A DNA stretch of 64,000 bases from Candidatus Moraniibacteriota bacterium (GCA_052034975.1 JBPOIA010000021.1:702-64701); one strand, 5' to 3'. Positions 24,716 to 58,819 are shown, counted from the first letter of the stretch. The notes: generated from the letters alone by a model not told the origin. Numbers and translations: made by a program.

Positions 24716-24869
24716 ATACGAGACGCTTTTTTTCTTTGATTTTTCCGACCAGGCTAACTCATTGATCGGTGTTGGGAAAGAATTTTTTAAATGGCAAGAA
24801 CAAGCCCTAAACAGAGCTTGTTTTTGCTTGAGCGGAGCAGTGGCTACGGTAAGAACTGAATCTAAACGA

Positions 24870-24960
24870 ATAATTCATATGTAACATAATTTATATTATA
24901 TTTAACATATGTGACATATTGACTTATTTGTACACATATGTTAACATCTAGACATATGAA
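24870..24960 (+). promoter_or_regulatory. Promoter with four ACATATGT-type palindromic operator repeats upstream of and overlapping the toxin-antitoxin operon
   Basis: CATATG cores at approximately 24876, 24906, 24935 and 24953. Putative -35 TTGACT and -10 TAACAT 17 nt apart lie between them. Confidence 0.5.
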
Positions 24961-25216: not shown

Positions 25217-25218
25217 AT

Positions 25219-25656: not shown

Positions 25657-25703
25657 ATATAAATTAAAAACCACCCAAATCGGGGTGGTTTTAAATTACT
25701 TTG

Positions 25704-25775
25704 AGCGGGTAACGGGAGTCGAACCCGTATCTTAACCTTGGCAAGGTCACATAATAGCCGCTATACGATACCCGC
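25704..25775 (-). tRNA. tRNA-Gly (anticodon GCC)
   Basis: Reverse complement GCGGGTA...TGACC TTGCCAA GGTTA...ACGGGTTCGACTCCCGT TACCCGC. The D-stem is weak, so this may be divergent. Confidence 0.6.
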
Positions 25776-25853
25776 TTATGCCTCGCTCCGACGAGGAAGA
25801 TCGTCTAAAACGCATTGCTCACTATAACTGAAAAACCTCTCTTTGGCAACCGG

Positions 25854-25925
25854 TGGGACTGGCAGGGATCGAACCTGCGACCAAGCGGTTATGAGCCGCG
25901 CGCTCTACCACTGAGCTACAGTCCC
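25854..25925 (-). tRNA. tRNA with CAT anticodon (elongator Met, or Ile2 via TilS lysidinylation)
   Basis: Reverse complement GGGACTG TA GCTCAGTGGTAGAGC ... CTCATAA ... GCAGGTTCGATCCCTGC CAGTCCC. G1-C72 is paired, so this is not the initiator. Confidence 0.65.
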
Positions 25926-25973
25926 TCGGGGTCGAAACGGGTCTTTTGAACCACCCTTGACCCATATTCTGTG

Positions 25974-26045
<72 letters not shown>

Positions 26046-26096
26046 GTACTTTTGTACTTCGCTGATTGTAAAAGAAATGTCTCTAAAAATCAACTG

Positions 26097-26170
26097 TGGA
26101 CGATGCTGGACTCGAACCAGCGGCCCTCTCGGTGTAAACGAGATGCTCTAACCAACTGAGCTAATCGTCC
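26097..26170 (-). tRNA. tRNA-Val (anticodon TAC)
   Basis: Reverse complement GGACGAT TA GCTCAGTTGGTTAGAGC A TCTCG TTTACAC CGAGA ... GCTGGTTCGAGTCCAGC ATCGTCC. Confidence 0.85.
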
Positions 26171-26271
26171 GACAGATTCACTCGATACAAGTTTCTTTCA
26201 TTCTATCAAACAAAAAACCCTTCTTGAAAGGGTTCTGATGTCTAGGCCTCATCCATCCTTGTTTCGTTTTG

Positions 26272-26355
26272 TGCCCAGGAGAGGACTCGAACCTCCAATC
26301 CCTTGCGAGAACTAGCACCTCAAGCTAGCGCGTATACCAATTCCGCCACCTGGGC
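26272..26355 (-). tRNA. tRNA-Leu (anticodon GAG), long variable arm
   Basis: Reverse complement GCCCAGG TG GCGGAATTGGTATACGC G CTAGC TTGAGGT GCTAG + long arm + GGAGGTTCGAGTCCTCT CCTGGGC. Confidence 0.8.
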
Positions 26356-34543: not shown

Positions 34544-35683
34544 ATGAAAAGGGTCTTTTATGTGTCTTTGGGTATTCTCGTGTTGACGCTTATCTTTTTG
34601 GCTGCGTACAACTTCATTTTTCGCCATAATGCGAATGATCCGATAGCCGATAAGGAGAAAAAAGAGGATATCAAGGAAGAATCAGCGAGCGAGAATGCCC
34701 GCTCAGCGGAAAAGATCCTAAGTGTCATCAACGAAACCGTCCTTGGTGCCACAAGCGGTGACGACACACTCTATTACTATTCGCTCGATGACCAGTCGCT
34801 CAAAAAAGCTTCCTTGGAAGGCAAAGACAAGGAGATCCTGATGAGCAATCTTCCGGGCACACCAGCCAGGATCCTTTGGTCGCCGAAACGCGACCGTGCC
34901 TTGTTGCTGCTCAGCCAGTCCGGCGGGACGGCTCTTTGGTATTTTGCCGATTTTCAGATCAAGACCCTCGTTCCGCTCAAACCCGAAATGTCGAGACTCT
35001 CCTGGGACAACATCGGCGATCGGATCATCTACCAGTATACCGACACCAAGACCGGCGCCCGTTCTCTTAACACAGCCGCCCCAGATGGAAGCGGTTGGAA
35101 GAGGCTCGCCGACCTGAAAGACCAGGATTCTTTCTTTGCTCCCGTGCCGAAAAGCACCCTGATCTCATTTTGGAATCGTTCCAATGCCCTCGAAAAAACG
35201 TTTTTTGAGACCATCGGTATCACCGGCGAGAATCGACGTGTCCTTCTTACCGAAAAATTCGGAGCGGATTATCTGTGGTCACCGAACGGCAACCGGGTCC
35301 TCGTAAGCACCAGCGACCAAAAGGGCGGTCACTCGCTCCTTCTCAGTGTTATGAATCAGAACGGCGGGGAATTCAAGAATCTTTCCATCCCGACATTCGT
35401 AGCAAAAACCGTCTGGTCAAAAAACGGATCAGTTCTCTATTATGCTCTCCCCGGATCGCTTCCGGAGAACGCCGTCCTCCCCAACGATTATTTTGGCCGA
35501 CCTCTGTACACAAAAGACACTTTTTGGAAGATAGATTTGGAAAACGGAAAAAAAACACGCCTCCTCGACCTGGACGAAGTCTCGCAGGGCTTTGACAGCA
35601 CAGACCTCTTTCTCTCGTCGTCCGAGGACGCACTCTTCTTTACCGATCGGCAAACGAAACGTCTCTATCGTATCGACTTGTGA
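34544..35683 (+). CDS. Membrane-anchored TolB-like beta-propeller protein
   Basis: N-terminal TM helix. Repeated WSP[NK]G/LYY propeller blades (LWSPKRDRALLL, WSPNGNRVLV, WSKNGSVLYY). Confidence 0.55.
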   Translation: MKRVFYVSLGILVLTLIFLAAYNFIFRHNANDPIADKEKKEDIKEESASENARSAEKILSVINETVLGATSGDDTLYYYSLDDQSLKKASLEGKDKEILMSNLPGTPARILWSPKRDRALLLLSQSGGTALWYFADFQIKTLVPLKPEMSRLSWDNIGDRIIYQYTDTKTGARSLNTAAPDGSGWKRLADLKDQDSFFAPVPKSTLISFWNRSNALEKTFFETIGITGENRRVLLTEKFGADYLWSPNGNRVLVSTSDQKGGHSLLLSVMNQNGGEFKNLSIPTFVAKTVWSKNGSVLYYALPGSLPENAVLPNDYFGRPLYTKDTFWKIDLENGKKTRLLDLDEVSQGFDSTDLFLSSSEDALFFTDRQTKRLYRIDL

Positions 35684-36936
35684 TCTTCAAAAGTTTTTCC
35701 GGCCGGTTCGTTTTCCACGAATCGGTTTTTTGTTGTCGTGAAGATCAGCGCGATCAGGAGCCAAAACGAAAACGCCGAATCGGTTCCGAAATACGGGGTA
35801 TCCACAAGGCCAGAAACCAAAAAAAGAACGAGAAGCGAACCGAGAATCTTTAGAAGTGCCCGGATCTCTCCGTTAGATGTTTCTTTGTATGTCCGGTACA
35901 GACAGATGAAGGCTCGTAAAAGCAGAAGCAGGAACCCGATAAGCCCGAGGAATCCGGTTTCAAGCCATACGGCCAAAAACAAATTGTGCGGCTCAGGAAC
36001 CGCCCATTCGAGATATGGGGGAAAGTATTTCTGATATGACAGGTACTCTTCCTGAAACCGACCGAGACCGATACCAAGCACCGGGTGATCGGCGAGGACG
36101 CTTCCTGCTGCGTGCCAGATCATCACTCGTGAGGCAAGCGAGGAGCGTTCGTCAAAGGAGATGAGTGAGTGCCATTTTTCAGTCCCTCGCTCAAAAAACA
36201 CTGCCACCAAGCAAAAAAGTATGAGAACTATCGCGATACCGCCTTTTCCTCGACGTCCGGACGTGAAGAAAAATACCAAGAGAGAGAGAAGAGTCGCCAC
36301 CCAAACACCGTATGAGCGTGTCAGAAAAATAGCGGCAATCACGAGTGCGCCCGAAACCATAAAGAGGGCCTTTTGGCGAATCGCCGCTTGAACAGAAAAA
36401 GCTTGTTCCAAAAAATATGCGGCCAAAGGGACGCCCGGAGCGAGAAAGAGTGCCAGAAAATTTGGCGAAGAAAACCAGGCCTCTAAGCGTCCGTCGTATG
36501 TCATTCGCCCGTCAAAGAAAAACCACAAGCTTCCGATCGACGAAGATACGGTAACGAAAAGCCATGCCAAAAGAGATCGCTTCACGGCTGTGCGCGACAA
36601 CGGTACAAGAAGAATGAGCACAGCCATCAAGGTCGGAAAGAAGAACCAGGTCTTGAAAAGTCCGAGCGATTTGAACGAGAGCGGATGGACAAAAAGAGAA
36701 AGGAGCGTACCGAACAGAAATAAGGCAGTAGCGAAAATTGCCCAACGATCAGGAGACGAGTTTTGTCCGTGCCAATAAGATCCTTGGACGCCCAAAAACA
36801 GCACGAGGAGAAGAATCACTCCTCCTTCGGGCGTATAGAGAGGCAAGCCGAAAACATCCGTTTTCAGCCGAGCAAAAGGAAGCAAAAGAAACATTCCGGC
36901 GACACAAAAAGAAAGGAGTCTCAATGCGAGCGGCAT
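35665..36936 (-). CDS. O-antigen ligase (Wzy_C) family membrane protein
   Basis: Polytopic. Wzy_C signature EPHNLFLAVWLETGFLGL. Confidence 0.7.
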   Translation of the reverse strand: MPLALRLLSFCVAGMFLLLPFARLKTDVFGLPLYTPEGGVILLLVLFLGVQGSYWHGQNSSPDRWAIFATALFLFGTLLSLFVHPLSFKSLGLFKTWFFFPTLMAVLILLVPLSRTAVKRSLLAWLFVTVSSSIGSLWFFFDGRMTYDGRLEAWFSSPNFLALFLAPGVPLAAYFLEQAFSVQAAIRQKALFMVSGALVIAAIFLTRSYGVWVATLLSLLVFFFTSGRRGKGGIAIVLILFCLVAVFFERGTEKWHSLISFDERSSLASRVMIWHAAGSVLADHPVLGIGLGRFQEEYLSYQKYFPPYLEWAVPEPHNLFLAVWLETGFLGLIGFLLLLLRAFICLYRTYKETSNGEIRALLKILGSLLVLFLVSGLVDTPYFGTDSAFSFWLLIALIFTTTKNRFVENEPAGKTFEDHKSIR

Positions 36937-38222
36937 AAGCGCGTTTCCGTATGATTATGGAACGATCCGGCAAAGGCAATGAGAAACAGGAAGAGCGGTA
37001 AGACGTGCACCGAAAAAATCGGTGTCTCAAAAAGCGAATGTACCGAAAAGATGGTGAGCGATAAGAGTGTGGCTAAGGCGAACAGGTCTTTTTCTTTCCT
37101 CCATCTCCGGGCAGAGCGCAGAATGGCTGTTCCGAGCAATCCGAGAAAAAAGAAGAGTCCGAGAAGGCCCGTTTCTGCTGCCACATCAAGATAGAGGTTG
37201 TGCGCGTAAATCGGCTCACGATACGAGGCGCTCGGTTTTACGATGATCGGATAATTTCCGAGACCGACTCCTCCAAACGGACGTTCGGCGACAAACGCCG
37301 CCGCCTCTTTCCAGAGGCGCAGCCGCTCACTGTTCGAACCGTCTTCCAAAGAAAAACTCGAGACGAAACGTGCCCCGAAAGGACCCGAAAACACGGCAGC
37401 AACGATCAGGGCCAAGAAAATACCCGCGAGAAATTTTTTTCCTTTTTCTCGCCATTCCGCCAAACGAGGGGCCGTCATACCGAAACATACGGCGGCGGAC
37501 AGAGCCAGACCAACGTAACCCCCGCGGGAAAATGTCAGAAAGTCGGCAAGTAAGAGGAGGCTCGTTGCAAACAAAGCTGTTTGCGATCGTTCCTTCAAAA
37601 ATAACGCAAAAGCGAACGGGAACGCGAGACCGAAATAAAACGCCGCGATGTGCGGATCGGGGAAAAACGCCGTCGCGCGCAAAAAGGTCTCTCCGGAAAG
37701 ATTAACGAGAAGACTCGGGTACGCCGCCACGGCTTCTCCAAAAGCATTTCCAAGAAAGAACGGGAGGATTGTCTCCGTCCACACCGAAAAGACTTTTTCG
37801 ACACCGAAAACGAACTGCGAAAAAAACTGTACGATGGCAACGAGAGCTGCCGCAGAAGCGCCGACAAGAAGAAACCGTATGAGACGAAGCCGCGACTTCT
37901 CATCGCGGAACTGATCAAAAAAAACGAGAAGGAGCGGAAAGAATGTCCAAAGAAACACGTTTTTCCGAAAAGCCCACTCCTTGTTTTCCGCCCAAAAGAC
38001 CGACGCACTTATGAAAAAAATAAACGATGCGGCGAAAGCGAGCATTGTCGGATCCGGCAGGTACAGTGATCGCCGACAAAGACTTGCCGCTGCCCAACAA
38101 AAAACGATCAGGAGTGATCCTATTCGGACAATCGCGAGATCCACCCCTTCGGTGGGCGACAGTGCCCATTGAAATGGGAGAGCGAGAAGAAAAATAGGGA
38201 GAAGGATACGCATATGTTTCAT
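36921..38222 (-). CDS. O-antigen ligase (Wzy_C) family membrane protein, second paralogue
   Basis: Signature YAHNLYLDVAAETGLLGL. Start taken at MKHMRILLP with an ATGA overlap of the upstream GT2 stop. The track ORF extends to 38420. Confidence 0.65.
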   Translation of the reverse strand: MKHMRILLPIFLLALPFQWALSPTEGVDLAIVRIGSLLIVFCWAAASLCRRSLYLPDPTMLAFAASFIFFISASVFWAENKEWAFRKNVFLWTFFPLLLVFFDQFRDEKSRLRLIRFLLVGASAAALVAIVQFFSQFVFGVEKVFSVWTETILPFFLGNAFGEAVAAYPSLLVNLSGETFLRATAFFPDPHIAAFYFGLAFPFAFALFLKERSQTALFATSLLLLADFLTFSRGGYVGLALSAAVCFGMTAPRLAEWREKGKKFLAGIFLALIVAAVFSGPFGARFVSSFSLEDGSNSERLRLWKEAAAFVAERPFGGVGLGNYPIIVKPSASYREPIYAHNLYLDVAAETGLLGLFFFLGLLGTAILRSARRWRKEKDLFALATLLSLTIFSVHSLFETPIFSVHVLPLFLFLIAFAGSFHNHTETRLCRSH

Positions 38223-39019
38223 CGACCGTATCGAAAAAATCGGAAAATCCGCAAGACGATATACTCCCGCCATGGCCGATACTTTTTGAAATACCGCTCT
38301 TGGGACCGATAATAGTGCTTTTTCTGTTCTCGGGACGAATGTTGGCTCGTTCCACCGAAGTGCAGAAGCGAAAACCTTGAAAGCCTTCTCTTGTATCCAG
38401 CCCGTGAGACGCGCTGACAAAAATCAACGTCTTCAAAATACAGAAAAAAATCCTCGTCAAACCCGGAAAGCTCCAAAAAAAGGCTTTTCCGAACAAACAA
38501 CGCGGCACCGCTTACCCAATCCGTTTCCCGATCATCCTCGTTTCCGGATAGCTGCTCGTTCTTCTTCTGAAAAAACTTTCCGGCCAAGATTTTTCCCAGC
38601 GTCGGCCACCGACCGAAGCTCCACCGTTCCGCTTCGCCGGAAGGGCGGAATAGCCTCATTCCCAATACGCCCAAAGCCGGGTCTTTTTCGAATGCTTCGC
38701 GAATACCTTCGAGACACTGTTCTCGGAAGCACGTATCCGGATTGAGGAACCCGATGATTTTTCCCGAAGCTCTCCGTGCGCCGATGTTCGCCGCGACACC
38801 GAAACCCTGGTTCTCTTTATTTTGGAGAAGAAGAAATCCGTATTTTTCCCGAAGACGCTCTACGAGGTCCCGTTCTAAGACGTCATTGTTGGACACAATG
38901 ATCTCGAAAGGTCCGCTGTTCCGATTTTCATATGAAAAAAGGCTTTTCAGGGCGTCTTCGAGACGTCGCGCACTACGATAATTGACGTAAATGAGAGAAA
39001 TGTTCGGATGATCGCCCAT
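38219..39019 (-). CDS. Family-2 glycosyltransferase
   Basis: ISLIYVNYRSARRL, GFGVAANIGARRASGKIIGFLNPDT and an ED motif give a GT-A fold. Confidence 0.8.
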   Translation of the reverse strand: MGDHPNISLIYVNYRSARRLEDALKSLFSYENRNSGPFEIIVSNNDVLERDLVERLREKYGFLLLQNKENQGFGVAANIGARRASGKIIGFLNPDTCFREQCLEGIREAFEKDPALGVLGMRLFRPSGEAERWSFGRWPTLGKILAGKFFQKKNEQLSGNEDDRETDWVSGAALFVRKSLFLELSGFDEDFFLYFEDVDFCQRVSRAGYKRRLSRFSLLHFGGTSQHSSREQKKHYYRSQERYFKKYRPWREYIVLRIFRFFRYGR

Positions 39020-41882: not shown

Positions 41883-42608
41883 TTACGCCTGTTTCGGCTT
41901 AAAAATATACATCTGCTGAAAAATCATAAACAGGGTCGAGAACAGCCAGTACAAGGACAGGGCGGCCGGAAACGTCGCGCCGATAAAGAGCGTCAACCCG
42001 GGACCAAGATAGAGCATCTGCTTATTCATTATAGCCGCAAAATCCGGCTCATCGGAAGCGGATGATGCCGATGAAGTAGCTTTTTGGCTCTGTAAAAGCA
42101 TTTTTGTCTGATAATACTGGGCGGCAGCCGAGAGAATTGCAAAAACGTAACTTGGCTTCGTAAGATCGACTATGTTCATAAAAAGATGCCCGATATTTCC
42201 AGGATTGGAGATAAAGGCGTACAAATCAGCCTGATTCACGACTAAACCGGCCTGGGAAATGTTCATAATCACCCGGTAAATAGCGATGAGGAAAACGAGC
42301 TGGATGATGAGCGGAAGGCAGCCGGAGAACGGGTTTACCTTGTTCTCCTTATAGAAATCCATTATGGCGCGCGTCTGTTTTTCCTTATCGTCCTTGTGTT
42401 TTTTCTGGATTTCCTTTATTTTCGGCTGAATTTCCTGCATTTTCTTCTGCGACTCTATCTGTTTTTTGGAAAGTGGGATGAATAATGTCTTGATGACGAG
42501 GGTCGTAAGAATGATAGCTATACCAAAATCCTGTCCGGGAACGGTATTATAGAAGAATATGAGGATATTATAGAGTGGCTGATAGATGAATATGTCGAAA
42601 AGGGCCAT
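41883..42608 (-). CDS. yidC: Membrane protein insertase YidC (short Oxa1-type)
   Basis: LYNILIFFYN, IIL[TL]TLVIKTLFIPLS and NPFSGCLPLIIQ are YidC core motifs. Confidence 0.85.
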   Translation of the reverse strand: MALFDIFIYQPLYNILIFFYNTVPGQDFGIAIILTTLVIKTLFIPLSKKQIESQKKMQEIQPKIKEIQKKHKDDKEKQTRAIMDFYKENKVNPFSGCLPLIIQLVFLIAIYRVIMNISQAGLVVNQADLYAFISNPGNIGHLFMNIVDLTKPSYVFAILSAAAQYYQTKMLLQSQKATSSASSASDEPDFAAIMNKQMLYLGPGLTLFIGATFPAALSLYWLFSTLFMIFQQMYIFKPKQA

Positions 42609-42619
42609 ATCTCTTTGTA

Positions 42620-42961
42620 TTAATTCGGATAAATTTGTCTTAAAAACCCATTAAAAACCTGTTGAATAGCCTCTTTTGTCCTATTTCTTGGCCTCTTCGT
42701 AAGAAAAAAAACAATATCTACTCCCTCAGAGGGACCTTTCTGAAAAAGTATCCTTAGCGTTTCTGAAAAAGTGCGCTTCAAACGATTCCTCTCGACAGCG
42801 GTCGGAACATACTTCTTACTCAAAGAAAACCCGACTTTTGGCTTATTTTCAGTATTTTTAACGTATCGGCAGCCTATTTCTTCAAAAAAAAGGGGTCTTC
42901 CGCTACGAAATACCCTATCGAAATCCTCCTTTTTTTTCAACCGGAATCCCTTTTTTAGCAT
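42620..42961 (-). CDS. rnpA: Ribonuclease P protein component
   Basis: LKKKEDFDRVF...VGFSLSKKYVPTAVERNRLKRTFSE matches the RnpA RNR motif region. Confidence 0.85.
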   Translation of the reverse strand: MLKKGFRLKKKEDFDRVFRSGRPLFFEEIGCRYVKNTENKPKVGFSLSKKYVPTAVERNRLKRTFSETLRILFQKGPSEGVDIVFFLTKRPRNRTKEAIQQVFNGFLRQIYPN

Positions 42962-42964
42962 ATT

Positions 42965-43105
42965 TTAAGCTACCGAAAGCTTTTTTCTTCCGGAAGCACG
43001 TCGACGGGCGATCACTTTTTTCCCGCCTTTCGTGCTCATTCGCTTCAAAAATCCATGGCGACGCGAGCGCTTACGGGTTTTCGGCTGATATGTTCTCTTT
43101 GGCAT
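42965..43105 (-). CDS. rpmH: 50S ribosomal protein L34
   Basis: Not in the ORF track. Reverse complement translates to [46 protein letters not shown]. Confidence 0.9.
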
Positions 43106-43290
43106 ATCATTTTGAAATAAATTGATTTAGCTCTGATAGTTTATGTAGTGTATCTAAAAAAGAGAGAAAAGTCAATTTATAAGGAAAAAGTGCACTTATT
43201 CACTTCTTATCCACTTTTTTAGCATCTTTTAGCTTCGCTACGAAGGTTTTTATCTGTTATAATGAGTTTTGCTGTTGATAATTTTCCTCT
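43106..43290. other. Putative oriC segment upstream of dnaA
   Basis: DnaA-box matches CTTATCCAC (~43208) and TGTTGATAA (~43275). Conserved rpmH|dnaA junction. Confidence 0.5.
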
Positions 43291-44709
43291 ATGACGAACG
43301 AGGAGCTTTGGAAAGCCGTTTTAGGACAAATTGAACTTTCCATATCGAAAGCGAATTTTATCACGTGGTTCAAGAATACCGCTATTTTAAATCGTCAAAA
43401 TGGGTTAGTGACCATTGGTGTTCCAAATGGATTTGCAAAGGAATGGCTCGAAAATAAGTATAATCACTACATCTTGAAAGCCTTAAAAAGCCTTGATTCT
43501 GATATAAATGAGATCCGTTGTATTCTTTCTATTGAAAAACCTCTCTCTCAAGGCATCGACTCTGTTAAAAATACCACTCCTTTAAAGTCGTCTGATGTTG
43601 CAACCGGCTTCGTAAGAAAAAAGCTCCTGGAAAAGCCTATTTTTACCGATCAACAACAAAGTACGCCGGCATTTCATGAAACAAACCTCAATACCCGGTA
43701 CACTTTTGAGAATTTTATTGTAGCTGAAAACAATGAGCTCGCTCGGGCAGCCTGCTACGCCGTTTCCCAAAATCTCGGTGCCGCCTATAACCCGCTTTTC
43801 ATCTACGGCGGTGTTGGTTTAGGAAAAACACACCTTCTCCAATCCATCGGGAATGAAGTTATCAAAAATCATCCAGAAAAACGCATTAAATATATCACTT
43901 CCGAGCGCTTTACCACGGAATTAGTGGATTCTATTAAAAATCAAAAAATCGACCGCTTTAAGGAATATTATCAACAGATGGATCTTTTAATTATTGATGA
44001 TGTACAATTCCTTTCTGGGAGAGAAAAGACTCAGAATGAGTTTTTCCATATCTTTAATTCCCTTTATCAGATCAATAAGCAGATTGTCATTTCAAGTGAC
44101 CGACCACCAAAATCCATCCCTACTCTTGAGGAGCGCCTCCGTTCCCGCTTTGAAGGCGGAATGATCACGGATATTAGCCGCCCGACCGTAGAGACAAGAA
44201 TTGCTATCTTAGAGGCAAAAATAGCCGAAAAGGGCTTTCTTCTCGATACCCCAGCTATCCGATTTATCGCGGAAAATATCACTCAAAACATTCGAGAACT
44301 TGAGGGGGCGTTAAACCGGGTGATGGCTTTTTGTGAATTTCATAAGATTCCACCCACTCTTGAAACAACCCAAAAAATCCTCCATCAGCTTATTCAAAAT
44401 AACAAGAAAACTCTTCAAATAGACGATGTTTTTTCTGTCATCACGGAATATTATACTCTCACTAAAGATGATCTCGTCCGGAAAGGAAGAAAAAAAGAAA
44501 TTTCCCATCCGCGACAAGTGATGATGTACATCTTACGAAAAGAACTTGAGATGCCTTTTTCCGCTATTGGGGAATATCTCGGGGGGCGCGATCATACAAC
44601 CGCACTCCATGCATTTGAAAAAATAGAGAAAGGAAAAGAAGAAAATTTACGATTAAAAGAAGAACTTTCTCTCCTTTATGAAAGATTATATTATTCTCAG
44701 AGTGGATAA
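43291..44709 (+). CDS. dnaA: Chromosomal replication initiator DnaA
   Basis: AAA+ Walker A GGVGLGKTHLL. Sensor motifs. C-terminal DnaA-box-binding HTH (...HTTALHAFEKIE...). Confidence 0.95.
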   Translation: MTNEELWKAVLGQIELSISKANFITWFKNTAILNRQNGLVTIGVPNGFAKEWLENKYNHYILKALKSLDSDINEIRCILSIEKPLSQGIDSVKNTTPLKSSDVATGFVRKKLLEKPIFTDQQQSTPAFHETNLNTRYTFENFIVAENNELARAACYAVSQNLGAAYNPLFIYGGVGLGKTHLLQSIGNEVIKNHPEKRIKYITSERFTTELVDSIKNQKIDRFKEYYQQMDLLIIDDVQFLSGREKTQNEFFHIFNSLYQINKQIVISSDRPPKSIPTLEERLRSRFEGGMITDISRPTVETRIAILEAKIAEKGFLLDTPAIRFIAENITQNIRELEGALNRVMAFCEFHKIPPTLETTQKILHQLIQNNKKTLQIDDVFSVITEYYTLTKDDLVRKGRKKEISHPRQVMMYILRKELEMPFSAIGEYLGGRDHTTALHAFEKIEKGKEENLRLKEELSLLYERLYYSQSG

Positions 44710-44949
44710 GGTTGTATAAATAAAAGAAAGAGGTGTATAAGAGTTTAATAAGAAAAAGAAAAAAGGGTATATTTTATTAAAAAAGAAAAATATTTCTTTT
44801 TATCCTTATAAAGTGTGGATTTTTATAAGAGATATCAAGGACTTCTTTTTATAAAAATCCTAAAAATAAAGCTTAAACTAACTTTATTCAGATATTCACC
44901 GAAGTAATGATAATAATAATTTCTTAATATATATACTCTATTATTTTTT
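44710..44949. other. AT-rich dnaA-dnaN intergenic region; probable DNA-unwinding element with DnaA-box variants
   Basis: Over 75% AT. Carries TTATCCTTAT and AAGTGTGGATTTTTA (ATCCACA core). Confidence 0.45.
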
Positions 44950-46098
44950 ATGAAACTTATCTGTACTCAAGAAAATCTTCAAAAAGCCCTTTCTTACCTA
45001 GAGCGTGTTGTTGGAAAACAAAGTACTCTTCCGATCCTGAGTAATTTTCTTTTAGAGACTGAAAATGGGAGATTAAAGATTTCTGCGACAAATCTTGAAA
45101 TTGGAGTGATTGTCTATATAGGGGCGAAAATAGAACAAGAAGGAAAAATAGCCATTCCAGCAAAATTATTAATGAATTTTATTTCTAATCTTCCTTATAG
45201 TGATGTTGTGGAGCTCTCTACGGAGAATTTTGTAATACATATAACCACCCCAACTCATCAAATGAAAATAAAAGGATTAAATGGGAAGGATTTTCCTATT
45301 ATTCCACAATATAAAAAGGAATATTTTTTCTCTTTTCCGGCACAAAAACTAAAAAATGCGCTTACAAGGGTACTTTTCTGTGCGAGTATAAATGAAGCTC
45401 GATTAGAACTTACGGGAGCACATATCTTCTTTTTTCAGGATTCTATCCATCTTGCAGCAACGGATAGTTTTCGGCTTGCGGAAGAAATTATCCCTTTTAC
45501 GGAATATGGTGAAGGATATCTTTCTTTCTTACAAAATACCCCATCACTCATACTCCCTCTTCATACACTTCAGGAAATTTCTAGAGTGATCACTCCTGAA
45601 AGTAATGAGGTAAAGATAGCACTTGAAGAAAATCAGATATTTTTCGAAGTCGATGGTGTACAAATCATCTCACGGATTATTAATGGAAAATATCCAGAAT
45701 ATAAACAAATTATCCCACAACAATTTACTCTCCAAATCATCTTTCAGAAAGAGATTTTTCAGCGCGCGATAAAGATAGCGAGTGCCCTCTCAATGTATAA
45801 CGAAAACGAGATAACCCTTTCTTTTGATCCGAGAAATTCACAATGTACAGTCACTTCGGTATCAAAAGAAGTCGGGGAAAATGTCACGACACTCCCAATA
45901 GAATTTTTTGAAGGAAAAACGCCGCTTACAATAACATTTAATCCACGATACGTGCTGGAAGGAATAAATGCTCTTGGAGGAGAAAAAATACTTTTTCTTG
46001 CGAATACAGAAGCAACCCCTGCGGGTATGCGAATGATGAAAGGGGAGCGCGAACCAGAACAGAATTATCTTTATATTCTGATGCCGATCAGGAAATAA
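44950..46098 (+). CDS. dnaN: DNA polymerase III beta sliding clamp
   Basis: MKLICTQENLQKALSYLERVV...LPILSNFLLE N-terminus. Three-domain length. Confidence 0.9.
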   Translation: MKLICTQENLQKALSYLERVVGKQSTLPILSNFLLETENGRLKISATNLEIGVIVYIGAKIEQEGKIAIPAKLLMNFISNLPYSDVVELSTENFVIHITTPTHQMKIKGLNGKDFPIIPQYKKEYFFSFPAQKLKNALTRVLFCASINEARLELTGAHIFFFQDSIHLAATDSFRLAEEIIPFTEYGEGYLSFLQNTPSLILPLHTLQEISRVITPESNEVKIALEENQIFFEVDGVQIISRIINGKYPEYKQIIPQQFTLQIIFQKEIFQRAIKIASALSMYNENEITLSFDPRNSQCTVTSVSKEVGENVTTLPIEFFEGKTPLTITFNPRYVLEGINALGGEKILFLANTEATPAGMRMMKGEREPEQNYLYILMPIRK

Positions 46099-46107
46099 AT
46101 AGAGTCT

Positions 46108-52242: not shown

Positions 52243-52743
52243 TTATTTGGGTTTCATCATTTTTATAGCCTCCATCTTTCTCCGGCTCGCGTGGCAGACC
52301 GCGAGCGCGAGCGCATCGGCGACATCATCGGGCTTCGGAATAGCCGACAGGCGGAGAACACTCTTTACCATCAGCTGCATTTGTGCCTTATCTGCGCGTC
52401 CGTAGTTAGTAAGCGCTTGTTTTACCTGTAATGGAGTATAACCGTATATTTTAACACCAAAACGCTCCAAAGTCAAGAGGATAACGCCACGGGCCTGAGC
52501 GACGGAAATCGCGGTTTTTTGGTTGTTGAAGAAAAAGAGTTCTTCGACGGCGGCCTCAGCCGGCTTGAATTTCTTTAAGAGAATTTCAAGATCGTCCGCA
52601 ATCTCGGCGAGACGCTTTTCGAGAGGCAGATCTTTGGAAGTCGAGATATGCCCGTAGTGTTTCGGCAGGAGCATTCCACCTTTCGATTCTATTACGCCCC
52701 AGCCGACGGTCGCTGTGCCGGGATCGATGCCCAAGATGTACAT
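52243..52743 (-). CDS. ruvC: Holliday junction resolvase RuvC
   Basis: MYILGIDPGTATVGWGVIE. Catalytic D/E pattern. Confidence 0.9.
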   Translation of the reverse strand: MYILGIDPGTATVGWGVIESKGGMLLPKHYGHISTSKDLPLEKRLAEIADDLEILLKKFKPAEAAVEELFFFNNQKTAISVAQARGVILLTLERFGVKIYGYTPLQVKQALTNYGRADKAQMQLMVKSVLRLSAIPKPDDVADALALAVCHASRRKMEAIKMMKPK

Positions 52744-52755
52744 AGTCTTGACTGA

Positions 52756-53475
52756 TTATGAAGCGATGTTGTCCCACAGGGTCTGGATGTCCGGATGGTC
52801 TTCGAGGAACTCTTTAAGCTTCTCGAATTTTTCGAGATTGTCGGCGGAGAGGGTGATGGTCTGAGTTGGAAGATAGCCGAGCTCGGCGGACTTCGGGATA
52901 AGATTTTTGGTCTCGAAATAGGCGCGGACTTTCTGGAGGTCTTCCGACTTCGTCAATACGAGCAAGACGTCGTTTTCAGCGCGAAAGTCGTCGGCACCCG
53001 ATTCGATGGCCTCAGCCTCGATCTGGTCGGCAGAAAATTGTTCGGCGGGGAAGACGATGATACCGACGCGTCGGAAGAGAAATGATACTGCTCCGCTTGG
53101 AACGAACTTCCCGCCGTTTTTCGTGAGGATGGTCTTGATGTCACCGACGGTACGGTTTTTGTTATCAGTCATTCCTTCGATAAGGAGTGCGACCTGGCCC
53201 GGGCCATAGCCTTCGTAGAGCACCTCTTCGATAACCGCGCCATCCTTGAGCTCGCCCGTACCTGTTTTGATGGCACGTTCGATGTTGTCTTTCGGCATAT
53301 TCACGCCGCGCGCCCGATCGATGGCGAGGCGGAGCTTGAAATTCATAGCTGGATCGCCGCCTTCGCGCGCCGCGATGGAGATGAGTCGGCCGTATTTGGT
53401 GAAGACTGCCGCACGCTTCGCGTCGTTCAATCCTTTATGGTGTTTGATGCCTGCCCAGTGGGAATGTCCTGACAT
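52756..53475 (-). CDS. YebC/PmpR-family transcriptional regulator
   Basis: MSGHSHWAGIKHHKG...KRAAVFTKYGR is an invariant N-terminus. Confidence 0.9.
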   Translation of the reverse strand: MSGHSHWAGIKHHKGLNDAKRAAVFTKYGRLISIAAREGGDPAMNFKLRLAIDRARGVNMPKDNIERAIKTGTGELKDGAVIEEVLYEGYGPGQVALLIEGMTDNKNRTVGDIKTILTKNGGKFVPSGAVSFLFRRVGIIVFPAEQFSADQIEAEAIESGADDFRAENDVLLVLTKSEDLQKVRAYFETKNLIPKSAELGYLPTQTITLSADNLEKFEKLKEFLEDHPDIQTLWDNIAS

Positions 53476-53528
53476 AATGAAGAGGGAAACCGGTTCAAAG
53501 ATACGCTACCAAGGAAAGAATCAGCCGG

Positions 53529-54101
53529 TCAGGCGACCTTGCCGGAGCCGATGGTCGCGGCGAGATGATGAAGAGCGTCTGCGTCGCGCTCCTTCGCGAT
53601 GCGCATAACGAGATCCTTGACAGAGGAAGGATCGGCCACCTGGCGGAAGACGAAACGCGTTTCTTCGCCGGCCGTCTGGACGATGACGTCGCCGAAATCG
53701 AGGATAGTCGGAAGGAGACCCTCGACTTCGCTTGTGACGTCTTGGATGCGCTGAAAGTGGAGCTCGCTTATATGGCGGACGAAGAGTCCTTTCTGCTCGA
53801 TGTTCACGACGCGCTCGTTCGTAATGATCCACACGTCGAAATAGTAGTCGATCCAAATGAGGAATCCGTACAGCCAGGCGAAGATGAAAAATGTATTCTG
53901 GACGAAGATGAAGAATCGCCAATTGTCGCCGCGGAGCATATCGGGGAAAAGTGTCGGAACAAACAAGAAACTGCCGACGAGGATAGCCGAGAAGAGGATG
54001 ACGATAAAGAGGTGAGAGAAGAGGTTGAACCAGTGCCGATGGATGATGCGGAGCACTTGTTCGTTCTCACGTTGTCCGGGGAAATGATAGCGACCTGGCA
54101 T
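53529..54101 (-). CDS. Membrane protein with bacterial PH (YdbS/YdbT-like) domain
   Basis: Two TM helices, then ITNERVVNIEQKGLFVRHISELHFQRIQDV. Confidence 0.5.
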   Translation of the reverse strand: MPGRYHFPGQRENEQVLRIIHRHWFNLFSHLFIVILFSAILVGSFLFVPTLFPDMLRGDNWRFFIFVQNTFFIFAWLYGFLIWIDYYFDVWIITNERVVNIEQKGLFVRHISELHFQRIQDVTSEVEGLLPTILDFGDVIVQTAGEETRFVFRQVADPSSVKDLVMRIAKERDADALHHLAATIGSGKVA

Positions 54102-54110
54102 AAAGAAACG

Positions 54111-54329
54111 TTAAAGGTTTTTTGGAAGGAGCGTGTCGAAGGGAAGCGAGAAGAAGATGATGGCGTTTGTGAAAAGGAGAACAAGGAGCACCGAGACGAA
54201 GAGAATCGTGCCGAACACGGCGGCCGGACGCGAAAGCGAATAACGGAGAATATGGAACAGGACAAAAAGGCCGACGGTTACGTAGCTGAAAAAGAGAAGC
54301 GTATAAAGGAGACCGAACAGAGGTTTCAT
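54111..54329 (-). CDS. Hypothetical small membrane protein
   Basis: 72 aa. Two hydrophobic helices. May be co-transcribed with the bPH protein. Confidence 0.3.
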   Translation of the reverse strand: MKPLFGLLYTLLFFSYVTVGLFVLFHILRYSLSRPAAVFGTILFVSVLLVLLFTNAIIFFSLPFDTLLPKNL

Positions 54330-54359
54330 AGTTTCTTGTTTGTTTTGCCTTCTCCTATT

Positions 54360-55370
54360 CTACAACAATTTGTCCTGATGGTCTTCCGGGACGTCGAGTC
54401 CCAAGTGTTTGTAGGCGGCGGGAGTGACAATACGACCGCGTGGTGTGCGGGCAAGAAAACCGAGTTGAATAAGATAAGGCTCGTAGACATCCTCGATGGT
54501 TTGGATCTCTTCGCCGGTGACGGCGGCAAGGGACTGGACGCCTGCTGGTCCGCCTTTGAATGTGCCAATGAGGGCGTTTAAAATGTGCCGATCAGTCGGT
54601 TCGAGGCCAAGCGTGTCGATTTCATAGAGATCGAGGGCCTTTCGGGCGATTTCCCCGGTGATGGTGTCGATATCCTGTATCTGGGCGTAATCACGGACGC
54701 GTTTCAAGATGCGGTTGGCGACACGGGGCGTCTGGCGGCTTGAGCGGGCGATCTCCGCTGCGCCATCGGTATCGATGCCGATATTGAGGATGTGCGAGGA
54801 ACGGGAGACAATCCGCTCGATTTCTTCCGGTGTGTAGAACTCGAGGCGGTGTGTTGAGCCGAAGCGATTGCGGAGCGGGTTGGAGAGCGAACCGAGACGG
54901 GTGGTGGCACCGATCAGTGTGAAATGAGGCAGATCAAGCTGGATGGTGCGCGCGGCGGGACCTTTGCCGATGATGATGTCGAGCTTGTAATCTTCCATCG
55001 CTGGATAGAGGACTTCCTCAATCGTTTTATTCAGCCGGTGGATTTCGTCGATAAAGAGCACATCGCCGTTTTCGAGGTTCGTGAGAATGGATCCGAGATC
55101 CCCGACGCGCTCGATGGCCGGTCCGGAGGTTATCTTGATGTGTACGCCCATCTCTTTGGCAATAATGTGGGCAAGTGTTGTTTTTCCGAGACCCGCCGGA
55201 CCATAAAGGAGAACGTGGTCGATAGTCTCACCACGCTTCTTGGCGGCTTGGATGAAAATGCCGAGATTACGCTTTATTTTTTCTTGCCCGACGTATTCGG
55301 AAAACGCCTGCGGACGCAGGGTATTATCGAGATTTTGTTCATCGAGCGGTTGCGGATCGGTACTGATCAT
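54360..55370 (-). CDS. ruvB: Holliday junction branch-migration helicase RuvB
   Basis: Walker [17 protein letters not shown]. Walker [10 protein letters not shown]. Sensor motifs. The track ORF extends to 55418. Confidence 0.9.
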
Positions 55371-55522
55371 AAGAGACAAAAAGCGAGAATCTTTAATAAT
55401 TGTACCATCCATCCGCACCAGCTACAAACCAAAAAACGTGAAAGAAGAGCCTTTTCTTGAAGCTGAGAAAAAGCGATTCGAGCGGCGGTCTTGTGGAGCG
55501 AAACAACGTACGAAACGCCGTC

Positions 55523-55552
55523 TTGACAAAAAAATCAAGCTATGCTACTATC
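55523..55552 (+). promoter_or_regulatory. Orphan sigma70-like promoter
   Basis: TTGACA - 17 nt - TACTAT. No plus-strand CDS downstream for 4.6 kb. Confidence 0.45.
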
Positions 55553-55557
55553 AAAAG

Positions 55558-55772
55558 TCGCTTCATTGAAAAAAGCTCCCCGGGGCTGTTTCACCTGTAG
55601 ACAATTGGGGATTTCTATCTTTTGTCCTCAATCCGGGAATAATGGTCAAGATCGGGTAGGGTGGTTTCGGCTGCGCTATACCTCGACCGTATTCCTTTTC
55701 CCGTGCTCCTATGTATGGGTTTTGTCTACAGATGAAACGATCCCAAAAAAAGACCCTCGGAGGGTCTTTTTT
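55558..55772 (+). ncRNA. Candidate small structured RNA (6S-like?) between the promoter and an intrinsic terminator
   Basis: 10-bp long-range pairing CTGTAGACAA...TTGTCTACAG closes a ~140-nt domain. Ends at GACCCTCGGAGGGTC followed by TTTTTT. No ORF. Confidence 0.3.
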
Positions 55773-55778
55773 CTTTGT
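55744..55778. terminator. Bidirectional intrinsic terminator (A-run, hairpin, T-run)
   Basis: AAAAAAA GACCCTC gga GGGTC TTTTTT. Serves the candidate sRNA on the plus strand and the PilB-like gene on the minus strand. Confidence 0.7.
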
Positions 55779-55795
55779 TTCTCAAAGAGGCTACT

Positions 55796-58700
55796 TTATA
55801 GGTCGGTGACGCGACGGACTTCTTCGAGTGTCGTTTTGCCTTCAAGGACGGAAAGGATACCGTCCTGTGCGATTGTGATCATCCCGCCTTTAATCGCTTG
55901 TTCTTCTATCTCGTGAGTCAGGGCATTCCTCGCGATCAAGTCCTTCATCACATTATCGACGAGGAGCGCTTCGGAAAGCATCACTTGCCCTTTGTATCCG
56001 GTGCCATTGCAAGCGGCACAGCCGGACCCCTTTGAAAGAGCGCGTTGTTTCGGGAGGGTGATACCGGACGTTTCCGGAAGCGAAGCGAGAACACGTTCGA
56101 TGACGGAGGATTCTTCCGTGGATGGCTCGGCCGGTTTTTTACAGTGTTCGCAGACGCGGCGCACGAGACGTTGTGCCAGGAAAAGATCGCCCGCATTCGC
56201 GAGATCATCTCCGGATACGCCCATTTTGAGGAGTCGCGTTACGGTGCCGGCGGCGGAGTTGGCATGGAGGGTTGAGAGTACCAGGTGTCCGGTGCTCGCG
56301 GCTTGGACGGCGATTTGGGCGGTTTCATCATCGCGAATTTCGCCGATCATCAGGATGTCCGGATTTTGACGAAGGAGTGAGCGGAGCGCGGTCACGAACG
56401 TATAACCCTCAGCATCATTCACTTGTGTTTGGAGCAACCCTTTCATCTGGTATTCGATCGGATCCTCGACAGTGATGATCTTGATTTCCGGTCGGTTGAG
56501 CCGTGCGAGGATGCTATAGAGTGTTGTTGTCTTGCCGGAACCGGTCGGTCCGGTATTCAGTATCACGCCGTTCGGTTTTTTGATTGCCGTGAGAATTCTT
56601 TCTAAGTTCTGCTTGCGGATGCCGAGGGTTTCGAGATCGAGCTTCGAGACGGATTGGTTCAAGAGCCGCATCACAACCGTCTCACCGAAACCGCCGGAGA
56701 TGAGCGAAAGACGGACATCGACGGTGCCGCTCGCTGCCTGCTCGATTGGTTCCTCGAGCGTGATAGAGAAGCGATTGTCGGTGATACCGGCGCGCTCGCT
56801 CGTTTTGAGTCCGACGAGCGCCTTGATTTCACCGACAAAACTCGGATATTCGTTGAGAGGGAAACTCGCCACGGTCTGCAGGATGCCGTCGATGCGGAAA
56901 CGCGCCTCGAATGTTTCTGCCGCCGGTTCGATATGGATATCTCCCGCCTGGAGCGCGAGTGCGGCGGCGAAGATTGTTTGGAGACGCAGCTTGGAATCGA
57001 CGCTTGCGGCATAAGCGGCGAAATCCGGAAGGGAAGCGATATGTTTCACGGTCTCATCCATACAGGTCTTCGGAACATAGGAAGCGCGCGAAAGATCGCT
57101 CAGCATAATGTCGAGATAGATATTCTTCAGAATTTCGACCTGGTCGGTGACGCGCCAAACCTCCTCAAGTGTCGTGATACCGGCAAGGGTTTTCAGGATG
57201 CCGTCCTGGGTCATCGTGACCATCCCGTTTTCGAGCGCCGCCTTGAAGATCTCCTGTTCTGTACCACGTTCGTTGATGATTTCGATGATGTCCGGTGTCA
57301 TCGCGAATACTTCGAAAATCCCGACCCGTCCGCGGTAGCCGGTAAAATGACATTCCGAACACCCCACGGCTTTCCAAAGGGCATCGACGTTCTTTGGGAG
57401 AGGAATTTTTGCTTTGGGCGAAATGACGGTAACGAGTCGCATAATGGAATCGAGCGTCTCTTTGGTTGGTTGGTAGGAGACGCGGCATTTCGGACAGAGT
57501 CGGCGCACGAGGCGCTGAGCGATAACGATATTGAGGGACGACGATATGAGCGACGGTTTCACACCGAGCTCGATAAGTCGTGGAATAGCTGCCGGTGCGT
57601 TGTTGGCATGGAGAGTCGAAAGGACGAGGTGGCCGGTGAGCGCCGCATTGACGGCGATATCCGCCGTTTCGTCGTCGCGGATTTCTCCGACCAAGATGAC
57701 GTCCGGATCCTGCCGGACAATGGCCCGGAGCGCGGTCGCGAACGTATAGGACTTGTCTTTGGAGACTTCGGTCTGGACGATGCCGGAGAGTGAATATTCG
57801 ATCGGGTCCTCGACGGTGATGATCTTTGTCCCCGGTTGGTTGATGCGGGAAAGGAGGGTATAGAGCGTCGTCGTTTTTCCGGAACCGGTTGGTCCGGTAT
57901 TCAGGATCATCCCATGAGGCTTTTCGGTCTGACCGATGACCTCTTCTCGGGTCAGTCCGGTGAGACCGAGGTCGTTGATGTCTACAACGATGTCTTCTCC
58001 CGAGAGAAGACGCATATTGATGCTTTCGCCGTGTTTGCCGGGAATGCTGTTGACACGCACGTCAACGCGTTTGTTTTCGAGTTCGATGAAGAAGTGTCCG
58101 TCTTGGGCCTTGTCGCGGATATTGAGGCGCATCTTACCGATCATTTTGATGCGGGAGAGAAGGAGCCGATAGACTTCGACAGGAAGCGTGCCAATGTCTT
58201 GGAGTACGCCGTCGATGCGATAGCGCAGGCGAGTATGCTCTTCTTCCGGTTCGATGTGAATATCGCTTGCGTCGAGTTTCCGTGCGCCGGCAAGGATGAT
58301 CTCCATCGCGCGAGAAGTCGTGACCGGATGACTTTCTTTCAGGTGCATCAGTTCGCCGAATTCGGCTTCGAAGCGTTCCAGGTCCTGTCCGCCCAAAGAG
58401 ACGCGCACAAGATCGAGATTGTCGATGAATGTCCGCTTGGAGTAATTTTTCCATGCGTGTTCGATGGCCGGACGCGAGACGACATAGAGCTCTTTTTCCC
58501 AGCCTTTTTCGCGGCAGATATTTTCGATGAAAGAAAGCGTTTCCTGATTCGTAGGATCAGTGAGGGCGAAGAAAACTTGCGCGGATTTTTTTTGAAACAG
58601 GATGAGTCCAAACTTCCGAGCATCATTTTCCGGCACCAAAAGCACATCCTCGACCTCCAAAGGAAAAAGAGAGAGGTCGATGTAGGGAAGCCCGTGTTTT

Positions 58701-58819
58701 TGAGCCAGACGAGCAGCCTCTTCTTCGATCGAGACCTGTCGCATTTTTTGCAGGACGTCCTCGGTTTTTTGGCTTTTCTCGTCCGGGAGAGGGGCGCCTT
58801 GAGGAGAAACCTTTACCAT
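55796..58819 (-). CDS. Tandem-fused double PilB/GspE-type secretion ATPase (two complete N-domain + ATPase + Cys4 units in one polypeptide)
   Basis: Walker A twice (LNTGPTGSGKTTTLYTLLSR and LNTGPTGSGKTTTLYSILAR). Motif VEDPIEY twice. Two tetra-Cys motifs (CPKC...CSEC and CEHC...CAAC). Two GspE_N-like regions. Confidence 0.8.
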   Translation of the reverse strand: MVKVSPQGAPLPDEKSQKTEDVLQKMRQVSIEEEAARLAQKHGLPYIDLSLFPLEVEDVLLVPENDARKFGLILFQKKSAQVFFALTDPTNQETLSFIENICREKGWEKELYVVSRPAIEHAWKNYSKRTFIDNLDLVRVSLGGQDLERFEAEFGELMHLKESHPVTTSRAMEIILAGARKLDASDIHIEPEEEHTRLRYRIDGVLQDIGTLPVEVYRLLLSRIKMIGKMRLNIRDKAQDGHFFIELENKRVDVRVNSIPGKHGESINMRLLSGEDIVVDINDLGLTGLTREEVIGQTEKPHGMILNTGPTGSGKTTTLYTLLSRINQPGTKIITVEDPIEYSLSGIVQTEVSKDKSYTFATALRAIVRQDPDVILVGEIRDDETADIAVNAALTGHLVLSTLHANNAPAAIPRLIELGVKPSLISSSLNIVIAQRLVRRLCPKCRVSYQPTKETLDSIMRLVTVISPKAKIPLPKNVDALWKAVGCSECHFTGYRGRVGIFEVFAMTPDIIEIINERGTEQEIFKAALENGMVTMTQDGILKTLAGITTLEEVWRVTDQVEILKNIYLDIMLSDLSRASYVPKTCMDETVKHIASLPDFAAYAASVDSKLRLQTIFAAALALQAGDIHIEPAAETFEARFRIDGILQTVASFPLNEYPSFVGEIKALVGLKTSERAGITDNRFSITLEEPIEQAASGTVDVRLSLISGGFGETVVMRLLNQSVSKLDLETLGIRKQNLERILTAIKKPNGVILNTGPTGSGKTTTLYSILARLNRPEIKIITVEDPIEYQMKGLLQTQVNDAEGYTFVTALRSLLRQNPDILMIGEIRDDETAQIAVQAASTGHLVLSTLHANSAAGTVTRLLKMGVSGDDLANAGDLFLAQRLVRRVCEHCKKPAEPSTEESSVIERVLASLPETSGITLPKQRALSKGSGCAACNGTGYKGQVMLSEALLVDNVMKDLIARNALTHEIEEQAIKGGMITIAQDGILSVLEGKTTLEEVRRVTDL

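Follow-up and report, generated by a model that had tools for sequence, protein, structure and literature searches.

The question raised by this locus is whether the 425-nt gap separating two minus-strand genes, ruvB and a gene for a PilB/GspE-type ATPase (hereafter the pilB-like gene), in a 64,000-nt stretch of DNA from Candidatus Moraniibacteriota (hereafter the window) holds a gene of its own, and in what way the product of such a gene could act. The original prediction for this DNA had recognized here, on the plus strand, a promoter and an intrinsic terminator bracketing a structured segment, which it read as a candidate small regulatory RNA. In the analysis reported here, positions 55523-55773 (+) of the window were shown to constitute a gene in their own right, self-contained and specifying a structured non-coding RNA (ncRNA) of about 215 nt. 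The proposal of a small structured ncRNA was upheld by its occurrence at more than 140 loci, by covarying helices, by a promoter and a terminator on the plus strand, and by the lack of a conserved reading frame.

Conserved core and its occurrence

Homologous loci were collected in two ways. For the genome sample, the intergenic region was compared by blastn/nhmmer with 80 ruvB-centred loci, taken at one genome per species. The element was found in all of the Moranbacteria-type loci (46/46), without exception on the strand opposite to ruvB and upstream of it. In the 12 closest copies, a core of about 165 nt showed a mean column identity of 78%; this core was as conserved as the flanking proteins, and the leader and terminator sequences were not conserved. 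R1, a covariance model derived from this core, recovered all Moranbacteria loci, with scores of 61-194 bits for complete copies, gave weak matches in four deeper relatives (L047, L049, L065, and L066), and found no match in Saccharibacteria and the other loci (the rest of L048-L080).

For the RNA-only sample, a metagenome collection was scanned with a pattern composed of P1b and the P2 loop (Table 1), which retrieved 120 metagenome loci together with one viral-contig match duplicating one of them, 121 in all. R1 confirmed about 110 metagenome copies among these pattern loci, and five of the 121 (L120 = L201, L123, L169, and L194) were chance matches without a model hit. A phage origin was considered and dropped, the sole viral-contig match being such a chance match with no model hit. 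As far as sampled, the RNA family is confined to Moranbacteria.

Table 1. Coordinates of the RNA gene, its structural elements and its neighbors in the window
Feature	Position	Strand	Description
Promoter of the RNA gene	55523-55551	+	-35 TTGACA 55523-55528, 17-nt spacer, -10 TACTAT 55546-55551
Variable 5' leader	55557-55581	+	small hairpin GCUU...AAGC in the predicted fold
Core, 163 nt, four-way junction	55582-55744	+	covariance model R1, covariation
P1 closing stem, 5' strand	55586-55604	+	P1a 55586-55593, P1b 55595-55604 (CTGTAGACAA), one unpaired base between
P1 closing stem, 3' strand	55722-55740	+	TTGTCTACAG 55722-55731, P1a' 55733-55740
P2 hairpin, 8-bp stem	55605-55612 / 55624-55631	+	core positions 24-31/43-50
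P3 long arm, about 20 bp	55635-55696	+	compensatory changes in P3a, P3b, and P3c/d
P3a	55635-55640 / 55691-55696	+	core positions 54-59/110-115; 85.5% paired
P3b	55645-55647 / 55685-55687	+	core positions 64-66/104-106; 87.7% paired
P3 asymmetric internal loop, conserved	55648-55653 vs 55683-55684	+	(C/A)AGAY.. opposite UC; AGA invariant
P3c/d	55654-55665 / 55670-55682	+	core positions 73-84/89-101; 96.9% paired
P4 hairpin, 7-8 bp	55700-55706 / 55713-55719	+	core positions 119-125/132-138; loop UCCUAU
Intrinsic terminator	55746-55773	both	stem GACCCUC-GGA-GAGGGUC plus A/U pairs; A run before, T run after
ruvB	54360-55370	-	Pfam RuvB_N, AAA_lid_4, RuvB_C; divergent neighbor of the RNA gene
pilB-like gene, PilB/GspE-type ATPase, 1007 aa, tandem-duplicated	55796-58819	-	T2SSE matched twice

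Fold of the RNA

The fold model was built with RNAalifold on 12 sequences and then extended with a wider alignment. As summarized in Table 1, where core position n corresponds to window position 55581+n, four helices (P1 to P4) meet at the junction. The closing stem P1, pairing core positions 5-12 with 152-159 and 14-23 with 141-150, comprises 18 bp with one unpaired position, and it contains the 10-bp long-range pairing that had been noted in the original prediction (CTGTAGACAA with TTGTCTACAG, the P1b part of the stem). This pairing was indeed present in the minimum-free-energy fold of the window, which matched the comparative model, and its helix covaries. On the plus strand, the fold had a free energy of -86.9 kcal/mol (z = -6.3), and 0/200 shuffles were as stable; the corresponding values for the minus strand were -72.7 kcal/mol and z = -4.8.

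The check that the original prediction had proposed, covariation across homologous loci, strongly supported the model. Aligned with MAFFT without regard to structure, 97 distinct sequences were paired in 91.8% of the cells and showed compensatory changes in 34 of the 51 pairs, every helix of the full 51-pair model being backed by covariation. A model-based alignment of 45 genome sequences gave 96.4% of cells paired, with 28/41 pairs changed on both sides; none of 500 shuffles matched the pairing and covariation of this alignment, and sliding the partners by 1-3 columns lowered its pairing to 42-49%. In a mutual-information scan with average product correction, the proposed helices ranked top, two more covarying pairs extended P1a, so that P1 became nearly continuous, and one further pair extended P4. 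The same scan found no covariation indicative of a pseudoknot or a loop-loop contact.

Each helix contributed to this support. All six P1a pairs showed compensatory changes, and three P1b pairs alternated between UA/CG and AU/GC. The P2 stem was paired in 100% of the cells of the 97 sequences, with compensatory changes in six of its eight pairs, and it carries a nearly invariant loop of 11 nt (UUCUAUCUUUU, 55613-55623). Among the homologues recruited via ruvB, without any RNA pattern, CTATCTTTT was found in 42/45. In P3c/d, tandem U-G/G-U pairs were conserved below a UUCG tip (55666-55669). Every pair of P4 has compensatory changes, and its loop sequence was kept only in the close clade. About 30 positions were invariant, mostly in loops and close to the junction; they cluster in P1b, in the P2 loop, in the P3 internal loop with its flanking G-C pairs, and at the junction.

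Insertions of 20-130 nt were accepted at only two sites, both in P3, one between P3a and P3b and the other at the tip. Those of 50-130 nt between P3a and P3b were seen in L013, L014, L015, L017, L042, L097, L100, L105, L107, L112, L125, L153, and L164, and some of them resemble extra hairpins; in another group, including L036, L082, L090, and L118, a hairpin of about 20 nt replaces the UUCG tip. Two readings of the P3 internal loop as a known motif were dropped upon inspection by eye: a K-turn, for which the non-bulged strand has UC where GA is needed, and an 11-nt tetraloop receptor, whose UAUGG is not conserved in the clade of the window.

Strand and coding potential

Several pairs of the model were G-U in 77-96 of the 97 sequences, and on the other strand these would be A-C mismatches; the conserved G-U pairs thus identify the plus strand as the RNA strand. 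Consistently, R1 scored the window at 170.3 bits on the plus strand vs 25.7 bits on the minus strand. The RNA strand is therefore antisense to both neighboring genes, and, as the original prediction had remarked, the promoter is followed by no plus-strand coding sequence; there is no downstream same-strand gene to regulate.

The accompanying statement that the region holds no open reading frame (ORF) longer than 60 aa proved to be mistaken, since a mechanically called 124-aa ORF (55542-55916, +) crosses it, with an ATG that lies inside the promoter. Its frame is not conserved in relatives, and the non-coding conclusion thus stands. Only 62/97 sequences had a frame without a stop across the core, the distances between conserved anchors were spread over all residues modulo 3 (47/27/23 and 46/34/17), and the conceptual translations shifted frame between close relatives. 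Protein coding, by the 124-aa ORF as well as by all other frames, was rejected on these grounds, i.e., anchor distances that are not multiples of three and frequent stop codons.

The same data bear on the possibility that no RNA gene exists here at all, and that the region is either the 3' untranslated region and terminator of the pilB-like gene adjoining the promoter zone of ruvB, or the 124-aa ORF. A bidirectional terminator does lie 23 nt past the stop of the pilB-like gene, and the ORF does span 55542-55916. Nevertheless, the 163-nt core is conserved in the manner of the flanking proteins, unlike the leader and terminator sequences, and the G-U-bearing covariation fixes the plus strand, antisense to both neighbors, with an ORF frame that is not conserved. 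We accordingly regard this possibility as scarcely credible; in its form as a mere terminator zone of the pilB-like gene, which had been named as the alternative to the original prediction, it is refuted by the covariation, the conservation, and the strand.

Promoter, leader, and terminator

The near-consensus promoter described in the original prediction was present as stated; it is of the sigma-70 type and, in addition, TG-extended. Its -10 reads TGcTACTAT (55543-55551, TG at 55543-55544), the promoter matches the consensus at 10/12 positions, and transcription would start at about 55557. The -35 and the TG-extended -10 were invariant in the alignment of the 12 closest copies. Among the 94 homologues with enough upstream sequence, 92 had, at the equivalent place, a promoter matching the consensus at 9/12 positions or more, and 91 had a perfect TTGACA together with the TG; in a control scan of the opposite orientation, such a promoter was found in only 9/94. 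In the homologues, 18-111 nt (median and mode about 40) lay between the -10 and the core, and the intervening leader was conserved neither in sequence nor in length, ranging from about 25 to about 110 nt among close relatives.

The strong intrinsic terminator with its T run was likewise confirmed. Its hairpin (GACCCTCGGAGGGTC, 55753-55767) lies within 12 pairs over 55746-55772 and has a free energy of -14.2 kcal/mol. Being symmetrical, it is bidirectional and can act on the convergent pilB-like gene as well, the stop codon of which (55796) is 23 nt away. The terminator sequence was different in every one of the 12 closest copies, and the stem and the T run were retained. When a terminator was scored as a hairpin of at most -8 kcal/mol with a T run after it, 20-60 nt 3' of the core, 51/94 homologues had a separate terminator hairpin, compared with 6 in shuffled controls and 12 in the other orientation. 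In 23/94, P1 was directly followed by T4 or more, and one or the other arrangement was present in 65/94.

Taken by themselves, the consensus matches to promoters and terminators are within chance, the 3.5-kb region containing 3 promoter-like sites vs 2.0 expected and 9 terminator-like sites vs 4.6 expected; their significance comes from the comparative data. The RNA gene, at a distance of about 12 kb from dnaA/oriC, is oriented along the direction of replication, and ruvB and the pilB-like gene are head-on to it. The perfect -35 and TG-extended -10 in 91/94 promoters and the co-directionality with replication suggest that the RNA would be highly expressed.

Proposed mode of action

Our preferred reading, which we hold to be somewhat more probable than its negation, is that the structured RNA of about 215 nt acts in trans, via its three-dimensional fold, on a conserved partner that is most likely a protein. 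Covarying stems combined with invariant loop and junction nucleotides and with peripheral insertions are the pattern of RNAs that function by means of a particular tertiary fold, and a trans-acting, partner-binding role is favored on this basis, rather than one through long antisense pairing. In the proposed mechanism, P1 and P2 would probably stack, as expected from their being joined without a linker, and P3 and P4 would then stack as well. With both the P2 loop and the P3 internal loop located about 8-9 bp from the junction, such stacking would set the two side by side, and a contact between them is plausible because UCU in the P2 loop complements the invariant AGA in the P3 loop. The compact core would thereby present its invariant nucleotides to the conserved cellular partner, and the RNA may be an abundant component of a housekeeping or regulatory ribonucleoprotein (RNP).

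Several observations weigh against this reading. The docking of the P2 loop with the P3 loop has no covariation behind it: the P2 loop is invariant, a state that leaves no covariation to test, and the bases flanking the AGA vary without compensation. Moreover, L047 and L065, the most distant homologues, have another P2 loop sequence, and no candidate gene for an RNA-binding protein is linked to the locus. Nor does a generic trans-acting role account for the strict association with ruvB. By the criteria used, 29/94 homologues have no terminator, and the transcription of the RNA gene is deduced from sequence signals. Finally, a near-invariant single-stranded P2 loop would equally suit a seed for base pairing.

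This last point leads to the explanation that the RNA is a base-pairing small RNA (sRNA), in which the P2 loop (CUAUCUUUU), and perhaps the pyrimidine-rich J3/4, would seed on purine-rich mRNA sites (AAAAGAUAG). A nearly invariant 11-nt loop on a stable stem and a stand-alone gene with its own terminator are what such a function would call for, and matches to AAAAGATAG with at most one mismatch were indeed more frequent in the window (37) than in shuffles (19.9). However, this excess is most simply due to A-rich codons, and the two exact matches lie off obvious starts. Complementarity of the P2 loop to the ruvB leader or start region did not exceed the background either, the mean longest stretch being 4.8 nt vs 4.5 nt for shuffled motifs, with 66/200 controls as good. 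In addition, the conserved structure beyond the loop far exceeds the need of an sRNA that merely presents a seed, and the divergence of the loop in L047 and L065 counts against this explanation as well. We thus consider base pairing a possible but unlikely mode of action.

Comparison with known RNAs

A cmscan search with all 4227 families of Rfam 15 gave no match over the core, either at the gathering score across the whole window or at E<=10 across 55300-55900, and no match to the core was obtained at E<=1 in 10 short homologous loci. The sole Rfam matches near the RNA were terminator look-alikes at 55742-55802, and 140 kb of related loci yielded, at the gathering score, just tRNAs and terminator look-alikes. 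The original prediction had found no match to the signal recognition particle (SRP) RNA, transfer-messenger RNA (tmRNA), or RNase P RNA, and this holds for the covariance models too: SRP RNA, tmRNA, RNase P RNA, and Y RNA were rejected as identities of the RNA for lack of a match over the core. Known ribozymes, riboswitches, and orphan motifs (raiA, OLE, ROOL, GOLLD, HEARO, and others) were set aside in the same manner. In the full-text literature, no account of a motif of this kind came to light for Moranbacteria, Parcubacteria, or Patescibacteria, nor for the surroundings of ruvB. By its promoter, its terminator, and the lack of a conserved reading frame, the locus classes as an independently transcribed bacterial sRNA gene, and its product as a structured RNA with a conserved fold; the RNA represents a new family of stand-alone structured bacterial RNAs that lies outside Rfam 15 and was not found in the literature.

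The original prediction had been reminded of 6S RNA. Canonical 6S RNA is a rod about 200 nt in length, in which a central bubble with relatively little structure separates the closing stem from the apical stem (PMC8876501). The 5' strand of this bubble is open and templates the product RNA, the 3' strand in B. subtilis 6S-1 carries a small hairpin (3'-CB), and 6S RNAs share limited sequence identity (PMC8876501). The resemblance stands as a loose likeness: the RNA described here is likewise a stand-alone, lineage-wide RNA of about 200 nt (transcript about 215 nt) with a strong promoter, in which two arms with internal loops, P1 (18 bp) and P3 (about 20 bp), flank the center and in which P4 forms a hairpin on the 3' side of the center, as in B. 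subtilis 6S-1. Membership in the family did not stand. No 6S model matched, and the 5' central segment is not an open template but the stable P2 hairpin of 8 bp, 100% paired and with six covarying pairs; furthermore, the helices are arranged around a four-way junction instead of a rod, and the loop sequences are far more conserved than those of 6S RNA.

Independently of family membership, the RNA might be a functional analogue of 6S RNA, which would mimic an open promoter, sequester the sigma-70 holoenzyme, and be released by synthesis of a product RNA, with P1 and P3 as the helical arms and P2 and P4 in the central bubble. The size is about right for this role, the imperfect arms of about 18 and about 20 bp flank a center, and a 3'-side hairpin exists also in B. 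subtilis 6S-1 (PMC8876501). The very strong, conserved promoter is what would be expected of an abundant RNA, the RNA occurs lineage-wide, and neither the 64-kb window nor the 140 kb of related loci, which represent one genomic region, showed a canonical 6S. On the other hand, no 6S model matched even at E<=10 in the window, nor in 10 homologues, the would-be template strand is the fully paired, covarying 8-bp hairpin, and the conservation in loops and junction is atypical of 6S RNA, as is a four-way junction in place of a rod. A functional equivalence with 6S RNA thus appears rather improbable.

In its general character, the RNA resembles the raiA motif RNA and OLE RNA, orphan structured ncRNAs with functions that are unknown or have only lately begun to emerge, which are also independently transcribed, multi-helix, lineage-restricted RNAs with invariant nucleotides and strong covariation and with no obvious action by antisense pairing. 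It differs from these in its host lineage, the Candidate Phyla Radiation (CPR), and in being much smaller than OLE RNA. We know of no counterpart in the raiA and OLE families to the fixed position beside ruvB. In architecture, it is reminiscent of the hairpin ribozyme and the SAM-I riboswitch: four helices meet at a junction with short linkers, and a conserved terminal loop and a conserved internal loop lie on adjacent arms at a similar distance from the junction. This likeness is one of architecture only; the RNA has no model match, cleavage site, or expression platform, and its docking is putative.

The latter comparison raises the explanation that the RNA senses a ligand or is catalytic, i.e., a trans-acting aptamer of the riboswitch type or a ribozyme, with a junction that would unite the two conserved loops. 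The conservation is of the kind typical for such RNAs, with invariant nucleotides at loops and junctions, stems that covary, and peripheral insertions that vary, and the two conserved loops, on adjacent arms, are equidistant from the junction. This explanation is opposed by the absence of a match to any known ribozyme or riboswitch model and of a same-strand downstream gene, and neither a cleavage-site logic nor an expression platform is apparent. We therefore judge it to be quite improbable.

CPR/Patescibacteria, to which a large part of bacterial diversity belongs, are ultra-small cells with tiny genomes and few recognizable regulators; to our knowledge, almost nothing has been known of their ncRNAs. 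The presence of the RNA in every sampled Moranbacteria genome, under a near-perfect promoter, makes it very likely that it is important to these cells, and its loop and junction nucleotides are conserved about as strictly as those of a riboswitch. For Rfam curation and genome annotation, the analysis provides an alignment of the family (more than 140 sequences), a structure supported by covariation, and a model for searching.

Linkage to ruvB

As seen in the RNA-only sample, ruvB was divergently adjacent in 93 of the 121 pattern loci, at 83-770 nt from the pattern, and a further 22 loci end too near the RNA to show the upstream neighbor. Only one confirmed copy with sufficient upstream sequence, in L161, had no adjacent ruvB; in that locus, an unrelated 402-aa ORF without a Pfam match (37-1245, -) takes the place of ruvB and may be an insertion. 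The pilB-like gene was present in 40/43 genome loci, and 0.4-1.9 kb of other sequence often lay between it and the RNA. In 25 non-Moranbacteria loci, ruvA lies directly upstream of ruvB, but it does so in no Moranbacteria locus; the RNA gene occupies the position that ruvA holds in other phyla. The ruvA-ruvB operon is split in Moranbacteria, and in one contig a ruvA-like gene was located about 11 kb off (L172, 13774-14184).

These findings suggest that the RNA could be tied to ruvB, either as a divergent transcript controlling it or as a RuvAB-binding RNA, for example a decoy of a four-way junction. The element adjoins ruvB in all loci with enough sequence, bar the one with the inserted ORF, while its other neighbor, the pilB-like gene, is often 0.4-1.9 kb away or absent; it stands at the place of ruvA; and its fold is a four-way junction. 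However, the distance to the ruvB start codon ranges over 83-770 nt, and the ruvB leader shows no complementarity to the RNA. In addition, RuvA recognizes DNA junctions, of which an RNA junction in A-form, its arms closed as hairpins, would be a poor mimic. Conserved gene order alone can also explain the linkage, local synteny being generally kept. Such a direct tie is hence considered very unlikely. The unbroken linkage to ruvB where the ruvA-ruvB operon is split offers a concrete, testable hypothesis.

More speculatively, and with only slight probability, the RNA might be a new class of housekeeping RNA unique to one lineage of the CPR, whether as an RNP component, as a ligand sensor, or as a docked ribozyme resembling the hairpin ribozyme, that is coupled to Holliday-junction processing or DNA uptake; having replaced ruvA upstream of ruvB and kept its place between a pilus ATPase gene and ruvB across the radiation, it could, for example, modulate or partner RuvB.

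A putative promoter of ruvB was recognized by eye at 55397-55427 (-), with a -35 of TTGTAG, a 17-nt spacer, and a TG-extended -10 of TACAAT; this -35 was too weak to be listed by the promoter scan. In close relatives, the -10 of ruvB seemingly abuts the -35 of the RNA gene (minus strand TGTTACACT).

Other features of the window

The nearest relatives of the RuvB protein (84% identity) are encoded in metagenome-assembled genomes of Candidatus Moranbacteria/Moraniibacteriota. Downstream of ruvB, a 72-aa ORF and the genes for a bPH_2 protein, yebC, and ruvC follow on the same strand (52243-55370, -, including ruvB). The pilB-like gene, which converges on the RNA gene, consists of two complete T2SSE ATPase modules fused in tandem (55796-58819, -), and relatives have at this position either such a fusion or just one module of about 570-600 aa.

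The likely replication origin of the window lies at 42000-46100, where dnaA (43291-44709, +) and dnaN (44950-46098, +) are located at the minimum of the cumulative GC skew, beside AT-rich DNA (GC 0.35-0.40). At 36001-38000, the AT skew is unusually high (0.335, vs <=0.17 elsewhere); no tandem repeat was found within this interval, and long minus-strand ORFs (35665-36936 and 36921-38420) cover it. Ten tRNA genes are clustered at 14693-26355, namely at 14.7, 19.3-19.6, and 23.1-23.8 kb, with five at 25.7-26.4 kb, and the GC content is lower (0.40) at 16-20 kb.

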